51,344 nucleotides of DNA, taken from assembly GCA_021790275.1 (NCBI GenBank), contig JAJYIB010000001.1, forward strand, positions 1 to 51,344, written 5' to 3'. Position numbers and translations under genes: made by a program. The notes under the pieces were generated by a model. It was not told the origin of the DNA, made no database searches, and was given only the letters and a program-made list of their open reading frames with translations. Shown here in pieces: positions 9,056 through 16,638 of the stretch (positions are counted from its first letter, which is position 1; each line of letters opens with the position of its first letter). This DNA comes from a bacterium (GTDB taxonomy: Bacteria; Patescibacteriota; Minisyncoccia; UBA10092).

Positions 9056-11215
9056 ATGGAACGGGAATCATTTAAACCAACCATTGAAACCGAGCCAAAA
9101 GAGCAGCTGGAAGCTGCTATGCGTTCGAATCCTGAAGGAAAGAAAACAGAAACAAAAGAACGATCCCGGCAGGAGGTAATGGAACTCAAAGATCGCCTCC
9201 ATTTTGTCGCTAAGCTCCTTTCTAAAAATTTTGACTTAAGGGTTATCGCCGGCAGCGGCTGGGCCGCCGGTCTTTCGGAAAAATTTCAAAGAGAACGCCA
9301 GAAACACCCCGATAAGAGCTTGGAAGAACTTGACCCGAAACTTCTTACGCCAGAAGTCATGATGTACCCGGAAAAAGATTTGCTGGAACGAAGCGAGGAT
9401 TTTATCTGGGGCGTATTTCGCCATGAGATGGGTCACATCAAGCATTCGGATTATCAATCACTCATGGAAGCGCAAGAGGGCGCAAAGCAGGAGGGATATA
9501 ATCCGATGGACCTTTTTGTAATCTACGACGCATGGGAAGACGGCCGCTCTAACAATATGGAGGGTCAGACTTCTAAAACAGCGCGACATCGTCTCGGCAC
9601 TTATCTCAAAGAAGATATTTCGGAGGCATTGCTTCTCGATTTTGAAAAAAAGCCGCTCCCCATCCAGTATGGCGCTTTATGCTGGGCAAAAGGAGCGGAA
9701 TCTTTTATTGAAGGGTTTGACTTCGAAGAACTCAAGACAAGAATAAAAGACGAAAAAGTTCTTAAGGCGTTTGAAAAAACCGAAGAGGCTTTAGATGAAT
9801 ACCTTGGCGAGCGAAAAGGACGCAAAGCGTTCACTGACGTTCTCTGGCAAAAAGGATGGCCGATATTCAAAGAGCTCATAGACAAACACATTCAGGATGA
9901 AGCAAAGAAAAACCACGAACGAAAACAAAAAGGAGAAGGCGCACCACAACAGCAGCAGGGACAGCAGGGAGAAAAGGGCGAAGGAAAATCAGAGGAAGGA
10001 CAAGAAGGACAACAATCGCAGGAAGGCAAAGGCCAAAAAGGCGAGCAGAAAAAAGAGGGAAAGCAAAAACAGCCCGGTCAGCAGCCCGGCGAAAGCAAAG
10101 CGTGGGACGAACTTTCACAAGAAGAAAAAGAGCAGTATATCAAAGAAGCTCGCGAAAAGCTGACTGAAGAGGAGCGGGAATTTGTTAAGCGCATCCAGCC
10201 AAAATCAATGCAAATGAAAGAGCGCGAGGATGGCACGATTGAAGTTACTATGAAGGGTGTTTCTCCCGAAGATATCAAGCAAGCCGAACAGGCAGAAAAA
10301 GAATTTGACGAACAAAAAAAGAAAACCGAGCAAGAAGCCGGGAAATACAAAGAGGCAGCGGTCAAAGAGGTTAAAGAATCATTGGAGAAGCTAAAGGAAC
10401 GGGAAACAGGACTTACTAAAGAAGAACGCGAAAAATACGAAGAGTACTTTTCAGAAGTGAGAAAATATGTCGGCGCGTTAGTAGAAAAATTGGATGAAGT
10501 TTTTCCACCTCAGGAAGAGTCGGAATGGGAGGGCGGCCAGCGCCGAGGCAAGAGGGTTGATACAAGAAAACTCGCACGCGAAGTTCCCACTGGGCACGGC
10601 CGCGTATTTGAAAAAAAGGAAGTGCCGGAAATAAAAGAAGCAGCCTTTACTTTGCTTGTTGATGTTTCTGGCAGCATGCAGGGCAATAAAATCGAAGAAG
10701 CCCTCAAAGCCGCCATGCTTATGGCTGAAGCGTTTTCCCGCAAAGGAGTTCCTTTTGAAATCCTCGCTTTCCATGAAAAACTTCTTGAACTCAAACAATT
10801 TGAAGATGAATACTTTGGAAAAAAGAAGCTGGAATTAATGAGGGTGCTTCAGGAAGTGCAGACATCGCACGCGCGATATAATGATGATGGATATGCAGTT
10901 GACGGCGCGGCAAGACGATTGCAAAAACGGCTTTTGGCCAATGATGCACAAGGCGCACTTATTATCTTTTCAGACGGCCGGCCGGAGCCGAGTTCGACAC
11001 ACAGCGGTTCGGAGTGGGAACTGCATGGAATCGTAAACAAATGGTCGAGACAAGTTCCATTAATCGGCGTCGGTATTGGCCCGGGTATGGAATCAACGAT
11101 AAAAGAGTATTATGGTAAAAACGGGCTGCCGGTGCCGGACATTACCAAGCTCCCCCACGCGCTGCTTGATATTTTGCGAAAGCAGATCGCGCGTTTTGAA
11201 AAAAGAAATCAATAA
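9056..11215 (+). CDS. vWA-domain protein with an N-terminal HExxH metallopeptidase-like domain (partner of the MoxR-type ATPase)
   Basis: FRHEMGHIKH motif, a Q/E/K/G-rich low-complexity linker, and a C-terminal vWA domain with MIDAS DVSGSM...NDDG...SDG. No signal peptide or TM segment. Confidence 0.75.
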   Translation: MERESFKPTIETEPKEQLEAAMRSNPEGKKTETKERSRQEVMELKDRLHFVAKLLSKNFDLRVIAGSGWAAGLSEKFQRERQKHPDKSLEELDPKLLTPEVMMYPEKDLLERSEDFIWGVFRHEMGHIKHSDYQSLMEAQEGAKQEGYNPMDLFVIYDAWEDGRSNNMEGQTSKTARHRLGTYLKEDISEALLLDFEKKPLPIQYGALCWAKGAESFIEGFDFEELKTRIKDEKVLKAFEKTEEALDEYLGERKGRKAFTDVLWQKGWPIFKELIDKHIQDEAKKNHERKQKGEGAPQQQQGQQGEKGEGKSEEGQEGQQSQEGKGQKGEQKKEGKQKQPGQQPGESKAWDELSQEEKEQYIKEAREKLTEEEREFVKRIQPKSMQMKEREDGTIEVTMKGVSPEDIKQAEQAEKEFDEQKKKTEQEAGKYKEAAVKEVKESLEKLKERETGLTKEEREKYEEYFSEVRKYVGALVEKLDEVFPPQEESEWEGGQRRGKRVDTRKLAREVPTGHGRVFEKKEVPEIKEAAFTLLVDVSGSMQGNKIEEALKAAMLMAEAFSRKGVPFEILAFHEKLLELKQFEDEYFGKKKLELMRVLQEVQTSHARYNDDGYAVDGAARRLQKRLLANDAQGALIIFSDGRPEPSSTHSGSEWELHGIVNKWSRQVPLIGVGIGPGMESTIKEYYGKNGLPVPDITKLPHALLDILRKQIARFEKRNQ

Positions 11216-11218
11216 CAT

Positions 11219-12115
11219 ATGAACCCAGAAAAACTACAACCTACTCCTGAATCAGCCGAAACTTCCCGCGAAGAAGCCACTGCTTTCGAAGCTTTTGGAA
11301 AGCGCGGACAAAGACCCGGGGACCAGGAGAAGAAAGAACCGCAAATTGAATCCGAGCAAGCTATCTCTCTTGCCCGCGAAGTGGAAGAGGCGTTTGCTCG
11401 GAACGATTTTAACGCGGCTTTAGATAAACTTCGCGAACTTCAACGCACGACATCTCCCGAAGGAGTCGTTGAGAGCGAGCACCACGAACAGCTACTTAAA
11501 GAATTCGAACGCCAAGTCGCCACACTTTCAAAACGAGAATACGCAAAGGCGGCCAAAATGAAGCCGGATGAATTTGCAAGGCTTTTCGGACCGCTTAAAG
11601 AACATATCCGCGAAATCGCCCAGCGCGCAAAAGAAACTAAAGAAAAAGAAGGGCATATTCCATTTATTATTGTTATCAAAAACGATGTCATCGGCGGCGA
11701 AAAAGCCATGCCACTCATAGAGCTTGAGGGCAAAAAGGGATATACAGACATGAGCGCGGACGCTATCAAAGGATGTAAACCATATGAAGTAAAGCTTCCC
11801 GAAGGCAAGGCATATCTTGCGATTGATATTGAAACAGGCAAAACCACTCTTGGCAAAACTCCAGATGAAGCAATCAAACAAATCAAAAAAGACAACCGCT
11901 CGGCACTCACTGTGGAAGAAGCGGTTGCTCTCATCACTCATCACCCTGAAATTCTTAAAGATCACTATGTTTGGGCTAGTGGCTCTCGCCACGGCGCCGA
12001 CAAGGTCGCGTATTTGTGGCTCTACGAGGGTGAGCCGAGGCTCCACTGGCTCAGCTCGGACTACTCGGATGCGGAGTGGGGCTCGGCCTCCTGCGGTAGT
12101 AGAGTTGGGCCTTGA
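11219..12115 (+). CDS. DGR variable (target) protein 1
   Basis: 298 aa. The last ~41 codons are VR1. It is a paralog of 13885-14781 and starts 3 nt after the vWA stop. Confidence 0.85.
   Translation: MNPEKLQPTPESAETSREEATAFEAFGKRGQRPGDQEKKEPQIESEQAISLAREVEEAFARNDFNAALDKLRELQRTTSPEGVVESEHHEQLLKEFERQVATLSKREYAKAAKMKPDEFARLFGPLKEHIREIAQRAKETKEKEGHIPFIIVIKNDVIGGEKAMPLIELEGKKGYTDMSADAIKGCKPYEVKLPEGKAYLAIDIETGKTTLGKTPDEAIKQIKKDNRSALTVEEAVALITHHPEILKDHYVWASGSRHGADKVAYLWLYEGEPRLHWLSSDYSDAEWGSASCGSRVGP
11979..12100 (+). repeat. DGR variable region VR1
   Basis: A 122-nt match to the reverse complement of the TR (16517-16638). There are 11 mismatches, all at TR adenines. Confidence 0.9.
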
Positions 12116-12177
12116 TGCTTGGATGCTTGTCCCTCTTGTTTCTTGATATTTGATTTCCGCGAAAATTTTTTTAGAGG
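12101..12177 (+). repeat. 77-nt VR-flanking block, copy 1 (candidate target-recognition/IMH-distal element)
   Basis: 100% identical to 14767-14843. Contains the target stop codon and a tandem GATGCTTG GATGCTTG. Confidence 0.8.
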
Positions 12178-12229
12178 ATCCGCAAATCAAGTTGATAAAA
12201 TAACAAAATTAAACTATAATTTAATCAAT

Positions 12230-13876
12230 ATGCGCGAAGGCTTTCCAACAATTGAACGATTTGAGGCATTCAAGCCAGAGGATGCCGAAAAACTCTCGGA
12301 GATTACCCGTATCCGAGAAGATCTTTTGAAATCCGAAGCTTTGCCAAAAGAGGCAAAGGATATTTTATCTGGCATCAAAGTCCAAGAAAAATCCAAAGAA
12401 GTTTTTGAAGCTCTGGAAACGCACGAGCAGGAAAAAGAAACTATCGGGGTAAGCGAGCAAGAAAAAGAAGTGCGTATCGGCCGGGAAACAACCCCAATTT
12501 TCGAAGGGCCGACAGAAAAGCTGACTTGGCAGCTTCAAGCCGAGCAATTCCGAGAACAAGGCCAGACAATGGTTGAGCTGGCTTTTAAGCGCAATGACGG
12601 CGTAGAGGTAAAGCCGGGCGGCGTTGCCAGAGGCAAGACAAGATTCGGCGAATATGAACGCTATCTCCCGCTGGAAGAATATAAAGCTCTCAAAAAAGAA
12701 AATTCAAAATATCTGGATGCGGTTGATAAAATAACAAGCGGCGATGAAAAAGAACGACAAGCCGCCGAAGAATATCTAACCAAATTCAAACAGGATCACC
12801 CCAAATCCGAGTGGGTGCTTCGCGCCATGCGCCATCTCAATTCCCTTGCGGTTCACGAATCCTGCGAAACGCTTGAGCGAGATCCATATTTCGTGGAAAC
12901 CCCGTATGTGGTTGAGACAATGGAAAAACTTACACGCCTTATCAATCGCCAGCGCGAGCGGCAACAGGGAATCGTAATCATTGAAGGTGATGCCGGTACT
13001 GGAAAAAATAAAATCGTTGACCACCTCGCCTATCTCACCAAACGGCCGGTATTTCGTTTTACTTGTTCAGCCGGCAAAGACGAACAGGATTTGAAGTATC
13101 TTTTGGAATATGATGCCAAAAAAGGCACTTACCGCATTAAGTCCACCGTCATTGAAGCTCTGGAAACCCCGGGCGCAGTTCTTGAATTTGACGAAATCAA
13201 CACCTTAAAACCCGAGGTTGCTAAAATACTGAACTCTCTTTTTGACCACGACCGCGCACTTTTCTTGGGCGAAGATCGGACATCGGTAAAAGCGGCCGAA
13301 GAAGTGGTTATGGTCGGACTTCAAAATCCCCAACACTATATGGGAGTCAAACCGCTTACCGAAACTATCAAATCCCGAGCCCGCATTATGGAAGTTGGCT
13401 ATCCGCCGTTTGAAAAAGAAAAAGCGAGTCCTAACGAGCAAACACAATATCGTTCCGACGAAGCACTTATCGTTCGCCAATATATCCCCGAACTCAAAGA
13501 TTTGGATCAAAGAGAGTTTCAAATTCTTTGGGATTCGGTTGTAAACAAGAAAGAAGATCCCCGGGCGCACGAACTCCTAACAAGCGCAAGAAAAGAGCGG
13601 ATCGAGGATGTGAAAGAAGTTGTGGAGATGGCAAATAAGATTCGTGAGGCTTATCGGGCTTACCACGAAGGCAAATCAGATGAGCCAATCAAATTCGTCT
13701 TTAGTTTGCGCGAATCTGTTGAGTGTGCTTTTGAGCTTCCTCATGTTGAATTGACCGCCGAGGAAAAAAGAAAGGGTATTACCCGCGCTAAAAAAGCGGT
13801 GCAGGAAGTTGTTTTGCCAAAGATTCCGCTTGGCGAAGAGCGCACCTATCTTCAAAGCCTTGTTGCCGAACTCTAA
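12230..13876 (+). CDS. AAA+ ATPase, MoxR/AAA_5-like
   Basis: Walker A (IIEGDAGTGKNK), Walker B (VLEFDEIN), sensor-like GLQNP and SRARI. The start was moved to the ATG at 12230 because 12119-12229 is the conserved VR flank. Confidence 0.8.
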   Translation: MREGFPTIERFEAFKPEDAEKLSEITRIREDLLKSEALPKEAKDILSGIKVQEKSKEVFEALETHEQEKETIGVSEQEKEVRIGRETTPIFEGPTEKLTWQLQAEQFREQGQTMVELAFKRNDGVEVKPGGVARGKTRFGEYERYLPLEEYKALKKENSKYLDAVDKITSGDEKERQAAEEYLTKFKQDHPKSEWVLRAMRHLNSLAVHESCETLERDPYFVETPYVVETMEKLTRLINRQRERQQGIVIIEGDAGTGKNKIVDHLAYLTKRPVFRFTCSAGKDEQDLKYLLEYDAKKGTYRIKSTVIEALETPGAVLEFDEINTLKPEVAKILNSLFDHDRALFLGEDRTSVKAAEEVVMVGLQNPQHYMGVKPLTETIKSRARIMEVGYPPFEKEKASPNEQTQYRSDEALIVRQYIPELKDLDQREFQILWDSVVNKKEDPRAHELLTSARKERIEDVKEVVEMANKIREAYRAYHEGKSDEPIKFVFSLRESVECAFELPHVELTAEEKRKGITRAKKAVQEVVLPKIPLGEERTYLQSLVAEL

Positions 13877-13884
13877 TTATTATT

Positions 13885-14781
13885 ATGAGCGTTGAAAAAC
13901 CACAATTTACTCCTCAAGAATCCGCAGAAGGAGAAGTCAAAACAGAATTTGAAGCGTTTTTTAAAGATAAAAGCAAAAAAGGACAAAAAGAAGAGCCGGA
14001 AGAAGTGAAAGAACGAAAAGCCGAGCTTGAACAAAAAGCCGTGACGCTCGCTCAAGAAGCCGAGCGGGCGTTTTCTTCAAACGACTTAACGCAAGCCCTC
14101 GAAAAACTCCGCGAATTGCAGCGCACCGTCGGAATGGAGATGGTTGAAAACCGCGAACAATATGAAAAATTCGAGCAGGAGTTTAATCGCCAAATAGATA
14201 ATCTCTCCAAGAAAGGATTTCCCAAGCTTGCCGGCATGGATGAGAAAAAATTCGCCGCGATATTCGAACCATTAAAGGAGAAACTTAAGGAACTTTCCTC
14301 GCGGGAGTTTCAAGAAGGCCGAATTCCATTCGTAGTCGTTCCGCGAGACAAACTTCTTGCTTTAGAAAAGCAAATGCCTCTTGTTGAACTTGAAGGTAAA
14401 AAGGGATCTACGGGCTTTGACGATGTATCCGGATACTTCACCACCGCCAAGGGCGTTGAAATCCCGGAAGCGATGGCATATCTCGTAGTAGACATCGAAA
14501 ACGGCAAAGTCATGCTCGGGAAAAGCGCAGATGAGGCGGTAAAACAATTCAAAAAAGAAGGACGTTCTCCGCTTACCGCCGATGAAGGCGTCGCACTAAT
14601 ACTCCAGCACCCGGAAATTCTTAAAGATCATTCGCTGGACTTGCCCGGCTCTCGCCGCGGCGCCGACAGGGTCGCGGGTTTGTGGCTCTACGGGGGTGAG
14701 CCGGGGCTCAGCTGGAGCAGCTCGGACTACTCGGATGCGAGGTGGGGCTCGGCCTCCTGCGGTAGTAGAGTTGGGCCTTGA
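13885..14781 (+). CDS. DGR variable (target) protein 2
   Basis: 298-aa paralog of 11219-12115 with VR2 at its C-terminus. Starts 8 nt after the ATPase stop. Confidence 0.85.
   Translation: MSVEKPQFTPQESAEGEVKTEFEAFFKDKSKKGQKEEPEEVKERKAELEQKAVTLAQEAERAFSSNDLTQALEKLRELQRTVGMEMVENREQYEKFEQEFNRQIDNLSKKGFPKLAGMDEKKFAAIFEPLKEKLKELSSREFQEGRIPFVVVPRDKLLALEKQMPLVELEGKKGSTGFDDVSGYFTTAKGVEIPEAMAYLVVDIENGKVMLGKSADEAVKQFKKEGRSPLTADEGVALILQHPEILKDHSLDLPGSRRGADRVAGLWLYGGEPGLSWSSSDYSDARWGSASCGSRVGP
14647..14766 (+). repeat. DGR variable region VR2
   Basis: A 120-nt match to the reverse complement of the TR. There are 15 mismatches, all at TR adenines (13 A->G, 2 A->T). Confidence 0.9.
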
Positions 14782-14843
14782 TGCTTGGATGCTTGTCCCT
14801 CTTGTTTCTTGATATTTGATTTCCGCGAAAATTTTTTTAGAGG
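14767..14843 (+). repeat. 77-nt VR-flanking block, copy 2
   Basis: Identical to 12101-12177. Confidence 0.8.
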
Positions 14844-15037: not shown

Positions 15038-16114
15038 CTACGGCTGTCCCTTTTTTGTTTGGTCTGAAGGTTCTTTCACCCACTGCCAAAACTGCTGATG
15101 AAGCTTCTCTCTTAATTTATGGCTGTCGGCATGGACAAGAAACCCCATGTAAGAATCAAACGATCTCAAAAGGGATTCCTCGCTGATCAACCCAGCCTTA
15201 AATTGTTTGACCTTATAGCGCAGTTTTCTGAAAATTCTTCTGCGAACTTTTGCGCGAGGAACGCGAGCGTACGGCAAAGAAACATAACCCAAATAATCGA
15301 TTCCTTGCCGCAACTTGCGAATTTCCACTTTATTGGGATGAAGGGACAGATCAAGATGTGTTCTCAAAAAATCTGAAATTTTGTCTTTCAGCGAAGCGAG
15401 ATATTGATCGTCATGATGGAGAATCACAAAATCATCCGTATATCGAAGGTAATATTTCACTTTGAGGTCATGCTTCACGAACTGATCCAATTCATTCATG
15501 TAAATATTGGCGAACATCTGCGAGGTAAGATTGCCGATGGGCGCTCCTTTAATGCCGAGTCTCTGGTCGGCATCGGACGCGAAACTTCCAATGATTACTC
15601 CGACCAAATCCAAAACATCCTGATCTTTAATTTTGCGACCGATGATCTCCAGAAGGATTTGATGGTCAATGGTCGGAAAAAATTGCCGAATGTCGCACTT
15701 GAGCGCAAAGCATCCGCCTTTCGTTTGAAAAACTTTTCGTGCGTAAACGCCGAGCTGCTTCACCCCCTTATGGGTTCCCTTTTCTTTCCTGCAAGAATAA
15801 GAATCGGGAATAAAGGTCGACTCAAAAATGGGGTTAATAACGCGGAAAACCGCGTGATGGACGATTCTGTCGCGGACGGTGGCTTTGTGAATATGCCTCA
15901 ACTTCGGATCGCGGACATAAAAATCGACATACTCGCCATGCCGATATCTTTTATGGATCAGGCCGCGGTGAAGTTTAAAGAGGTTATCTCCCAAATGCCG
16001 CTCAAAAAGCTGGACATCGGCTTTTTTCCGCTTTTCTCTTTTGAAATCGTCCCACGCTTCGAGGAGATTCTCTGTTGAGACGATTTGCTCGAATAGTTTT
16101 CTGTAAACTTTCAT
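15038..16114 (-). CDS. DGR reverse transcriptase
   Basis: YTDD catalytic box (YLRYTDDFVIL) and the DGR-type IGNLTSQ motif in place of the group II/retron SP motif. 358 aa. Confidence 0.9.
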   Translation of the reverse strand: MKVYRKLFEQIVSTENLLEAWDDFKREKRKKADVQLFERHLGDNLFKLHRGLIHKRYRHGEYVDFYVRDPKLRHIHKATVRDRIVHHAVFRVINPIFESTFIPDSYSCRKEKGTHKGVKQLGVYARKVFQTKGGCFALKCDIRQFFPTIDHQILLEIIGRKIKDQDVLDLVGVIIGSFASDADQRLGIKGAPIGNLTSQMFANIYMNELDQFVKHDLKVKYYLRYTDDFVILHHDDQYLASLKDKISDFLRTHLDLSLHPNKVEIRKLRQGIDYLGYVSLPYARVPRAKVRRRIFRKLRYKVKQFKAGLISEESLLRSFDSYMGFLVHADSHKLREKLHQQFWQWVKEPSDQTKKGQP

Positions 16115-16474
16115 ATGAGAAATTTAGATCAATTAAACAACGATGCTCCGATTCTTAAACATACCATCGATCTCTACAAGGAACTCTACGGATATCTGAA
16201 AACATTTCCGAAAAAAGATCAGTATCTGCTCGGAAAGCAAATCGAAGAGCATGTGCTGGTTTTCTTGGAGCTGATCCTGATGGCCGCCGGAATGCAAAGG
16301 TTGCAAAAGTTGGAAGTCCTTGAGCAAGCCAACGGAAAATACGAGGTCTTCAAGGTGCTGCTGTATGTGGCTCGCGAGATGAAGATGATCAACAACGAAA
16401 AGTATCTTTCGGCGGAAGCAAAGGCACAAGAAATCGGAATGCAGCTTGGCGGATGGATACGCTCTTTGAGATAG
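16115..16474 (+). CDS. avd: Avd-like accessory variability determinant (four-helix-bundle, 23S rRNA IVS-protein family)
   Basis: 119 aa with an Avd-like pattern (..YGYLKTFPKKDQYLLGKQIEEH...EIGMQLGGWIRSL). Sits directly beside the RT. Confidence 0.75.
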   Translation: MRNLDQLNNDAPILKHTIDLYKELYGYLKTFPKKDQYLLGKQIEEHVLVFLELILMAAGMQRLQKLEVLEQANGKYEVFKVLLYVAREMKMINNEKYLSAEAKAQEIGMQLGGWIRSLR

Positions 16475-16516: not shown

Positions 16517-16638
16517 ACTACCGCAGGAGGCCGAGCCCCACTTCGCATTCGAGTTGTCCGAGTTGTTCCAGTTGAGCTTCGGCTTACCCTCGTTGAGCCA
16601 CAAATTCGCGACCTTGTCGGCGCCGTGGCGAGAGCCAC
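16517..16638 (-). repeat. DGR template region (TR)
   Basis: The minus strand matches VR1 and VR2. It contains 27 adenines, mostly in AAC/AAT/AAG codons (..NLWLNEGKPKLNWNNSDNSNAKWGSASCGSR). It is not part of a long ORF: a TAA lies 3 codons upstream. Confidence 0.9.

Follow-up and report, generated by a model that had tools for sequence, protein, structure and literature searches.

Background

The DNA analysed here (hereafter the window) is a stretch of 51,344 nucleotides on the forward strand of contig JAJYIB010000001.1, from assembly GCA_021790275.1 of a bacterium of the Patescibacteriota (Minisyncoccia; UBA10092), and its positions 11,219 to 14,781 raise the question of which protein fold carries the two variable repeats (VRs) of a diversity-generating retroelement (DGR) and what the proteins bearing them might do in the cell. 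An original prediction, made from the letters of the window alone, had described these proteins as short and apparently cytosolic, and had left open whether their VRs represent a distinct scaffold or a very compact version of the C-type-lectin (CLec) fold. Here, we assign both proteins to the DUF5701 family and find that their VRs quite probably sit in a compact, sequence-divergent CLec-like domain rather than on a new scaffold, a placement resting on predicted structure. Our overall reading, which we consider likely, is that these DGR-targeted DUF5701 paralogs with a CLec-like tip are cytosolic recognition subunits acting alongside a vWA-domain protein as well as a MoxR-type ATPase.

Results and discussion

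A complete retroelement with two targets

A reverse transcriptase (RT), an Avd accessory protein, and one template repeat (TR) make up a complete DGR, and two proteins of exactly 298 residues each, as the original prediction had stated, are its targets (variable proteins 1 and 2; VP1 and VP2). The features are as follows.

11219..12115, forward strand: VP1, 298 residues, with the DUF5701 domain at residues 103-296
13885..14781, forward strand: VP2, 298 residues, a DUF5701 paralog (open reading frame and Pfam)
11981..12100, forward strand: VR1, codons 255-294, differing from the TR at 11 positions, each a TR adenine
14647..14766, forward strand: VR2, differing from the TR at 15 positions, each a TR adenine
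12101..12177, forward strand: 77-nucleotide post-VR block, copy 1, comprising the last four codons and stop of VP1 and then 3' non-coding DNA
14767..14843, forward strand: 77-nucleotide post-VR block, copy 2, an identical direct repeat
15038..16114, reverse strand: DGR RT, 358 residues (Pfam RVT_1, 8e-20; motifs IGNLTSQ and YTDD)
16115..16474, forward strand: Avd accessory protein, 119 residues (Pfam bAvd, 1.5e-14; NCBIfam DivGenRetAVD, 1.6e-18)
16517..16636, reverse strand: TR, 120 nucleotides with 27 adenines, identified by repeat pairing with VR1 and VR2

All 26 TR/VR mismatches (11 in VR1 and 15 in VR2) fall at TR adenines, and the TR translates into the peptide that had been read from it earlier, GSRHGADKVANLWLNEGKPKLNWNNSDNSNAKWGSASCGSR. 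The two variable genes share a 197-nucleotide direct repeat of 94% identity, whose 12 mismatches all lie inside the VR, and the VRs are GC-rich (67-72%, versus 45% for the window). The 77-nucleotide block is presumably the target-recognition sequence that flanks the initiation of mutagenic homing (IMH) site, while a hairpin search downstream of VR1 returned no convincing hairpin (z-score 0.48). The DivGenRetAVD match of Avd (66.9 bits) is under that model's curated cut-off of 80 bits.

The variable repeats lie inside a DUF5701 domain

Both proteins matched Pfam PF18959 (DUF5701) with E-values of 6e-30 and 3e-31 (105 and 109 bits against a gathering cut-off of 27.4), and the match spans profile positions 2-204 of 206, which places the VR inside the domain. 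They are the only DUF5701 genes of this 573-kb, 91%-complete genome. VP1 comprises a charged, disordered N-terminus (residues ~1-40), a helical extension (~42-105), and the DUF5701 domain (103-296); other DUF5701 proteins, at 200-245 residues, lack this N-terminal extension of ~100 residues, which is disordered and then helical. The two paralogs are 53% identical with several compensating indels, and their equal length is therefore coincidental.

The conserved blocks noted earlier (IPF.V, ELEGKKG, and HPEILKDH) proved nearly invariant among 41 relatives, in which G288 and S291 of the C-terminal tail were invariant and S289, A290, C292, and R295 nearly so. That tail, WGSASCGSR, had been called unusual, a judgement that does not hold: it is the DUF5701 family signature and is common to non-diversified members. 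It is also adenine-free in the TR and forms the last strands of the predicted fold.

The earlier statement that the VR lacks a classic CLec or FGE signature was borne out, as no Pfam match to Lectin_C, FGE-sulfatase, or DUF1566 was detected in the C-terminal 111 residues at E ≤ 10, nor in any of 96 relatives at E ≤ 1, and no membership of an Mtd-type family was found either. Sequence and profile searches of the PDB gave no match to the domain, returning only spurious helical matches to the N-terminal region.

A predicted C-type-lectin-like fold

We modelled residues 95-298 with AlphaFold (AF2) from a 96-sequence alignment (model 2), yielding a confident prediction (predicted local distance difference test, pLDDT, 93.9; predicted template-modelling score, pTM, 0.91) with a well-ordered tail. 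Its C-terminal half, approximately the last 100 residues, shows the canonical element order of a C-type-lectin domain (CTLD).

Residues 198-205: strand beta1
Residues 215-224: helix alpha1
Residues 232-241: helix alpha2
Residues 250-258: strand beta2
Residues 262-269: strand beta3
Residues 272-279: strand beta4
Residues 287-296: beta5 (short strands)

In a Foldseek search of the PDB, Bdellovibrio Bd2740 ranked first with its C-terminal domain, 8oks_B, at modest significance (E 5.8e-3, probability 0.99, target-normalised TM 0.62 over 115 columns). CTLDs from many families made up 34 of the 50 matches listed, including BDCA2, mannose-receptor CRD4, CD72, MCL, DCAR2, EMS16, and rhodocetin, as well as NKR-P1A, MBP-A, LOX-1, DCIR, DNGR-1, and SIGN-R1, and every listed match with a probability of at least 0.07 was a CTLD. 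According to its authors, 8oks has a variant C-type-lectin fold with no calcium site and a trimer arrangement matched only by the DGR protein Mtd (PMC10769870). Given the predicted element order and these matches, a compact CLec variant is the better reading of the two that the original prediction had offered, and a distinct scaffold is not favored. The domain, too, is predicted to lack a calcium site, and VP2 has only one cysteine (C292), which makes disulfides unlikely. An earlier full-length model (model 1; 41-sequence alignment, pLDDT 77, disordered tail) was superseded by model 2; it had given no useful Foldseek match in the PDB or BFVD.

Mapped onto the predicted elements, the variable residues 272, 274, 276, and 278 of strand 272-279 alternate with the invariant P273, L275, and W277, while on strand 262-269 the variable residues 265 and 269 surround the invariant A264 and W267 and the near-invariant L266 and L268; the others fill loops 258-262 and 279-286. 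The randomised residues are thus predicted to occupy the beta2-beta3 loop, alternate positions of the beta3-beta4 hairpin, and the following loop, the pattern expected for one hairpin face with its adjoining loops. The scaffold would be held by L266, W267, L268, G271, P273, L275, and W277 together with the adenine-free tail (beta5).

Variable codons and natural hypervariability

Sixteen TR codons carry an adenine at position 1 or 2 (residues 258, 261, 262, 265, 269, 270, 272, 274, 276, 278, 279, 281, 282, 284, 286, and 294), giving a potential diversity of ~5e15 peptides per VR, and rewriting by the DGR covers 15-16 codons. The diversified segment, previously drawn as the last ~41 residues, is therefore C-terminal as claimed and can be narrowed to residues 258-286 (plus 294), with residues 287-298 constant; TR codons 287-293 contain no adenine, and the DGR is thus unable to alter the tail.

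Natural variation follows the same pattern. Across 34 relatives, each at least 45% identical to VP1, adenine-bearing codons had a mean entropy of 2.16 bits, compared with 0.34 bits for the remaining VR codons (Mann-Whitney p = 5e-7) and 0.86 bits for the DUF5701 domain outside the VR, and S256, A264, W267, G271, P273, L275, and W277, which stand between variable positions, never varied.

Four of the TR codons are AAG (K262, K272, K274, and K286). Adenine mutagenesis of these can yield TAG stops, so that a fraction of retrohoming events would cut the protein short ahead of its conserved tail; the AAC and AAT codons usually favored in TRs differ in this respect.

A widespread family fixed at the positions that the retroelement randomises

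With a cut-off of E ≤ 0.001, a profile search of 1.84 billion representative proteins recovered 1,433 members of the family. Of 80 loci taken from species-representative genomes, more than 60 carry a canonical form whose C-terminus is almost invariant across phyla: GSRCGDRRVPA(I/L)WI..G.P.LGWCW.GNPHTWLG(S/M)AS(C/A)..R. These canonical loci are distributed as follows.

Actinomycetota: 30
Metagenome-assembled genomes labelled Pseudomonadota: 15
Chloroflexota: 6
Bacillota: 3
Cyanobacteriota: 1
Deinococcota: 1
Microgenomates-group phyla within the Candidate Phyla Radiation (CPR): several

Canonical and diversified C-termini align gap-free over 41 residues, and hence the DGR randomises exactly the positions that are fixed in other lineages, which suggests that it took over an ancient, fixed binding face. 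In many actinomycete members, another residue stands in for the cysteine of the tail (GMASA). No RT, vWA, or AAA_5 gene was found within 6 kb of the canonical loci, and neighbourhood clustering around 74 canonical DUF5701 genes revealed no recurrent partner and hence no functional clue.

Within the Patescibacteria, DUF5701 is rare, being present in 6 of 401 sampled genomes, and diversified-looking C-termini are common among metagenomic relatives. In a domain tree built without the VR columns, the VP1 body is nearer canonical members and VP2 falls in a large diversified group, which hints that VP1 may have become a target by acquiring the VR and 77-nucleotide block from VP2; the deep branches are unsupported, and we therefore refrain from counting DGR captures on this tree. 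RT genes also adjoin two further DUF5701 subfamilies (loci L004 and L006), but these RTs look truncated and a TR search at both loci found no repeat, and hence we do not claim an active DGR there. The RT of L004/L005 (9033-9866, 277 residues) is listed with both RVT_1 and DpnI Pfam matches, either an odd fusion or an artefact of precomputed matches. Separately, 19 of 96 relatives, in a DUF5701 subfamily of ~240 residues, show weak PEP-utilisers_N matches (best E 9e-6); assumed to lie in the helical N-terminal part, these probably reflect only helical-bundle resemblance.

A conserved module with a vWA protein and a MoxR ATPase

The two variable genes are interleaved with two others.

9056..11215, forward strand: vWA-domain protein, 719 residues, the first module gene (Pfam CobT_C, 5e-11, and VWA, 9e-6, both C-terminal)
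12230..13876, forward strand: MoxR-type AAA+ ATPase (AAA_5), 548 residues (Pfam AAA_5, 1.2e-19)

The order vWA-VP1-ATPase-VP2 is co-directional and tightly packed, with gaps of 3-8 nucleotides at two of the three junctions and ~114 nucleotides before the ATPase ATG. The longest ATPase reading frame begins at a TTG at 12119, within the 77-nucleotide post-VR block, but orthologs are called at 548 residues, and the start is therefore probably the ATG at 12230, leaving a non-coding spacer of ~114 nucleotides after VP1. The vWA protein contains an HExxH motif (FRHEMGHIKH) at residue 123 with a marginal Peptidase_M48 match (E 0.089), followed by a low-complexity linker of ~65 residues (about 285-350) rich in Q, E, K, and G; it could be a metallopeptidase-vWA fusion.

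We found the gene order vWA - DUF5701 - AAA_5 - DUF5701 - RT - Avd again in at least five further contigs from Patescibacteria, including the following.

L001: module copy on a 76-kb JGI contig
L096, with its JGI twin L097: module copy on a 57-kb ENA contig
L098: module copy on a Portnoybacteria contig
L017 and L019: partial module copies

VP1-type and VP2-type paralogs are each conserved across the module-bearing genomes, and the vWA gene precedes the VP1 orthologs in L001, L017, L096, and L098. Adenine-specific differences recur as well, with 13 of 13 and 12 of 12 TR/VR differences at adenines in L096 and 11 of 12 in L019. No TR was detected in the fetched DNA of L001 and L098. In L001, the RT is truncated with SecA directly after it (13756-14610), and in L098 no RT or Avd was called in the ~770 bases before the contig end (10596-11366); the VRs of these loci may be frozen, or the L098 contig may end too soon. 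The module flanks vary, with a phage-integrase fragment, an HNH/N6_N4 methylase pair, and IS1595 transposase fragments (L001, 6762-7142; L096, 392-1832; L098, 4301-4802), and such different flanks in each genome suggest a mobile island, i.e., horizontal mobility.

Cellular location

VP1 and VP2 appear to be cytosolic, as had been proposed. Their N-termini are highly charged (37-45% of the first 60 residues) and lack a hydrophobic leader, and in simple hydropathy and motif tests, VP1, VP2, the vWA protein, and the ATPase showed no 19-residue window above a Kyte-Doolittle value of 1.1 and no lipobox, twin-arginine motif, or membrane segment. This agrees with reports that DGR targets of the CPR are typically without transmembrane or other domains (Roux et al., PMC8144416) and that MoxR-linked DGR targets are predicted to be cytoplasmic (Doré et al., PMC10907252).

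Proposed function and alternative explanations

We propose that VP1 and VP2 would be diversified ligand-recognition subunits working with the vWA protein and the MoxR ATPase, with the helical N-terminal extension of ~100 residues, unique to this subfamily, coupling the lectin-like module to vWA and MoxR. The arrangement would then parallel the vWA-CLec fusion targets in MoxR ternary systems, with the fused parts split into separate subunits. More speculatively, and as a possibility we hold only tentatively, the interchangeable randomised paralogs, one docking on vWA and the other on MoxR, would choose what a cytosolic remodelling machine acts on, amounting to anticipatory, immune-like recognition inside the cell in a 0.6-Mb CPR genome; such recognition would have as its basis a lectin-like face held invariant in other phyla for a conserved ligand.

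Several points weigh against the reading of cytosolic recognition subunits with a CLec-like tip, and those that concern the fold also favor a different view, in which DUF5701 is a genuinely new VR scaffold, an alpha/beta fold whose hairpin is only superficially CLec-like, and thus a third solution beside the CLec fold and the disputed immunoglobulin-like class. No Foldseek match reached E ≤ 1e-3, root-mean-square deviations were large (4.5-9 Å), and Mtd, TvpA, and FGE were absent among the 50 matches listed; the first, shallower AlphaFold model gave a best E-value of only 0.64 to a CTLD (CD72); and the domain of ~200 residues has no relatives by sequence among CLec families or PDB entries and includes an extra N-terminal alpha/beta half that matches nothing. 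Strand pairing and surface exposure are, moreover, deduced from secondary structure and the alternation pattern rather than from coordinates, the cytosolic placement derives from simple hydropathy rather than a trained predictor, and the six module genes contain no effector domain detectable with Pfam or NCBIfam and gave no PADLOC matches. We nevertheless consider a new scaffold unlikely, as the CTLDs that fill 34 of the 50 listed matches come from unrelated families, the top match combines a probability of 0.99 with a TM of 0.62, the beta-alpha-alpha-beta-beta-beta-beta order is that of a CTLD, and even the weaker, independent model ranked a CTLD first.

The remaining alternatives accept the domain but assign it other work. 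VP1 and VP2 might be displayed or released by a non-classical route as variable adhesins attaching an episymbiotic CPR cell to its host, and such a role would fit with most characterised DGR targets being surface or tail-fibre binding proteins and with the best structural match, Bd2740, being a surface adhesin tip. The CPR lifestyle makes host attachment plausible, and it has reportedly been proposed for CPR DGR targets in general. Yet neither protein has a leader, lipobox, or transmembrane segment, their genes are interleaved with those for a MoxR ATPase and for a vWA protein that likewise lacks a leader in a packed, co-directional cluster, and this synteny is conserved across genomes, all of which makes an adhesin role improbable in our view. 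Lower still we place the chance that DUF5701 is an enzyme or covalent-chemistry module acting through the Ser, Cys, and Arg of GSASCxxR, in which the DGR would tune specificity around a fixed active site. Here, the near-complete invariance of G288, S291, C292, and R295 across the family, their position directly adjoining the randomised loop, and the extraordinary conservation of the canonical motif across phyla are offset by the replacement of the cysteine in many actinomycete members, by the lack of similarity to any enzyme fold, and by canonical members having no conserved metabolic neighbours.

With the reading of DUF5701 paralogs as cytosolic recognition subunits, one "unknown" VR class of CPR retroelements acquires a name, a confident model, and an assigned fold, and the idea that DGRs depend on the C-type-lectin architecture, also where nothing shows up in sequence searches, gains support. 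In culturable bacteria (Streptomyces, Paenibacillus, and Brevibacillus), many non-diversified members carry an invariant motif where VP1 and VP2 are randomised, which opens both the ancestral ligand and the scaffold to experiment there, unlike in uncultured hosts. Further, the split vWA/MoxR arrangement extends the association of DGRs with MoxR from multicellular bacteria to ultra-small symbionts and offers a simple two-subunit system for asking whether DGR targets act as cytosolic sensors.

Comparison with known systems

DGRs, CLec-fold variable proteins, leaderless CPR targets, and associations of DGRs with MoxR and vWA have all been described (PMC5758913, PMC8144416, PMC7159879, PMC10907252). 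Like the CLec-fold DGR proteins Mtd of Bordetella phage BPP-1, TvpA of Treponema denticola, archaeal AvpA, and Thermus TaqVP, VP1 and VP2 carry a C-terminal VR copied adenine-specifically from a TR, variable residues interleaved with an invariant scaffold, a constant C-terminal end, and a predicted CLec-type fold without a calcium site. Unlike the Mtd/TvpA class, they have no FGE-sulfatase, DUF1566, or Mtd sequence match, belong to the DUF5701 family, bear an extra N-terminal alpha/beta half, and lack a leader peptide, and in the predicted model their structure resembles short canonical CTLDs and Bd2740 more closely than it does FGE-type CLec domains. The Bd2740 C-terminal domain, a compact bacterial C-type-lectin variant without a calcium site and our best structural match, differs in its ~10% sequence identity, in its place at the tip of a trimeric surface fibre, and in not being DGR-diversified.

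With the targets known from the CPR (RT clade 2, PMC8144416; the unknown-VR classes UVR1-6, PMC5758913), VP1 and VP2 share a Patescibacteria host, a small size with no transmembrane or known domain, a GC-rich VR in an AT-richer genome, and an association with an AAA ATPase. Here, by contrast, the target domain is identified as DUF5701, a fold is assigned, and the ATPase, of the MoxR type, has a gene of its own instead of being joined to the target; among DGR targets of the CPR, CLec-AAA fusions are the most common (PMC10907252). Roux et al. explicitly predicted new CLec variants among the uncharacterised CPR VR domains (PMC8144416).

The MoxR-vWA VMAP ternary conflict systems (Kaur et al. 2020, PMC7159879; Doré et al. 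2024, PMC10907252) likewise bring together a MoxR AAA+ ATPase, vWA, and DGR-diversified lectin-fold modules in one locus, with targets predicted to be cytoplasmic. In contrast to those systems, the lectin-like module here resides on separate small proteins and occurs twice, once after vWA and once after MoxR, rather than being fused to vWA; no VMAP protein, peptidase, TIR, cNMP cyclase, or other effector domain was found with Pfam, NCBIfam, or PADLOC; the host belongs to the ultra-small CPR bacteria and is not multicellular; and the scaffold is DUF5701 rather than FGE-type.

Finally, the non-diversified DUF5701 proteins of Actinomycetota, Chloroflexota, Bacillota, Cyanobacteriota, and Microgenomates-group CPR differ in having no RT within 6 kb, no vWA or MoxR, no conserved neighbours, and no N-terminal helical extension, and in carrying an almost invariant RRVPAxWI..P.LGWCWxGNPHTWLG where VP1 and VP2 are randomised; they share the full-length domain and the 41-residue C-terminal register, including GSR...W...P.L.W...GSAS(C)..R. 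The literature searched yielded no mention of DUF5701, and it seems not to contain DUF5701 as a DGR scaffold, its relation to a widespread non-diversified family, or the split layout that places one paralog behind each of vWA and MoxR.

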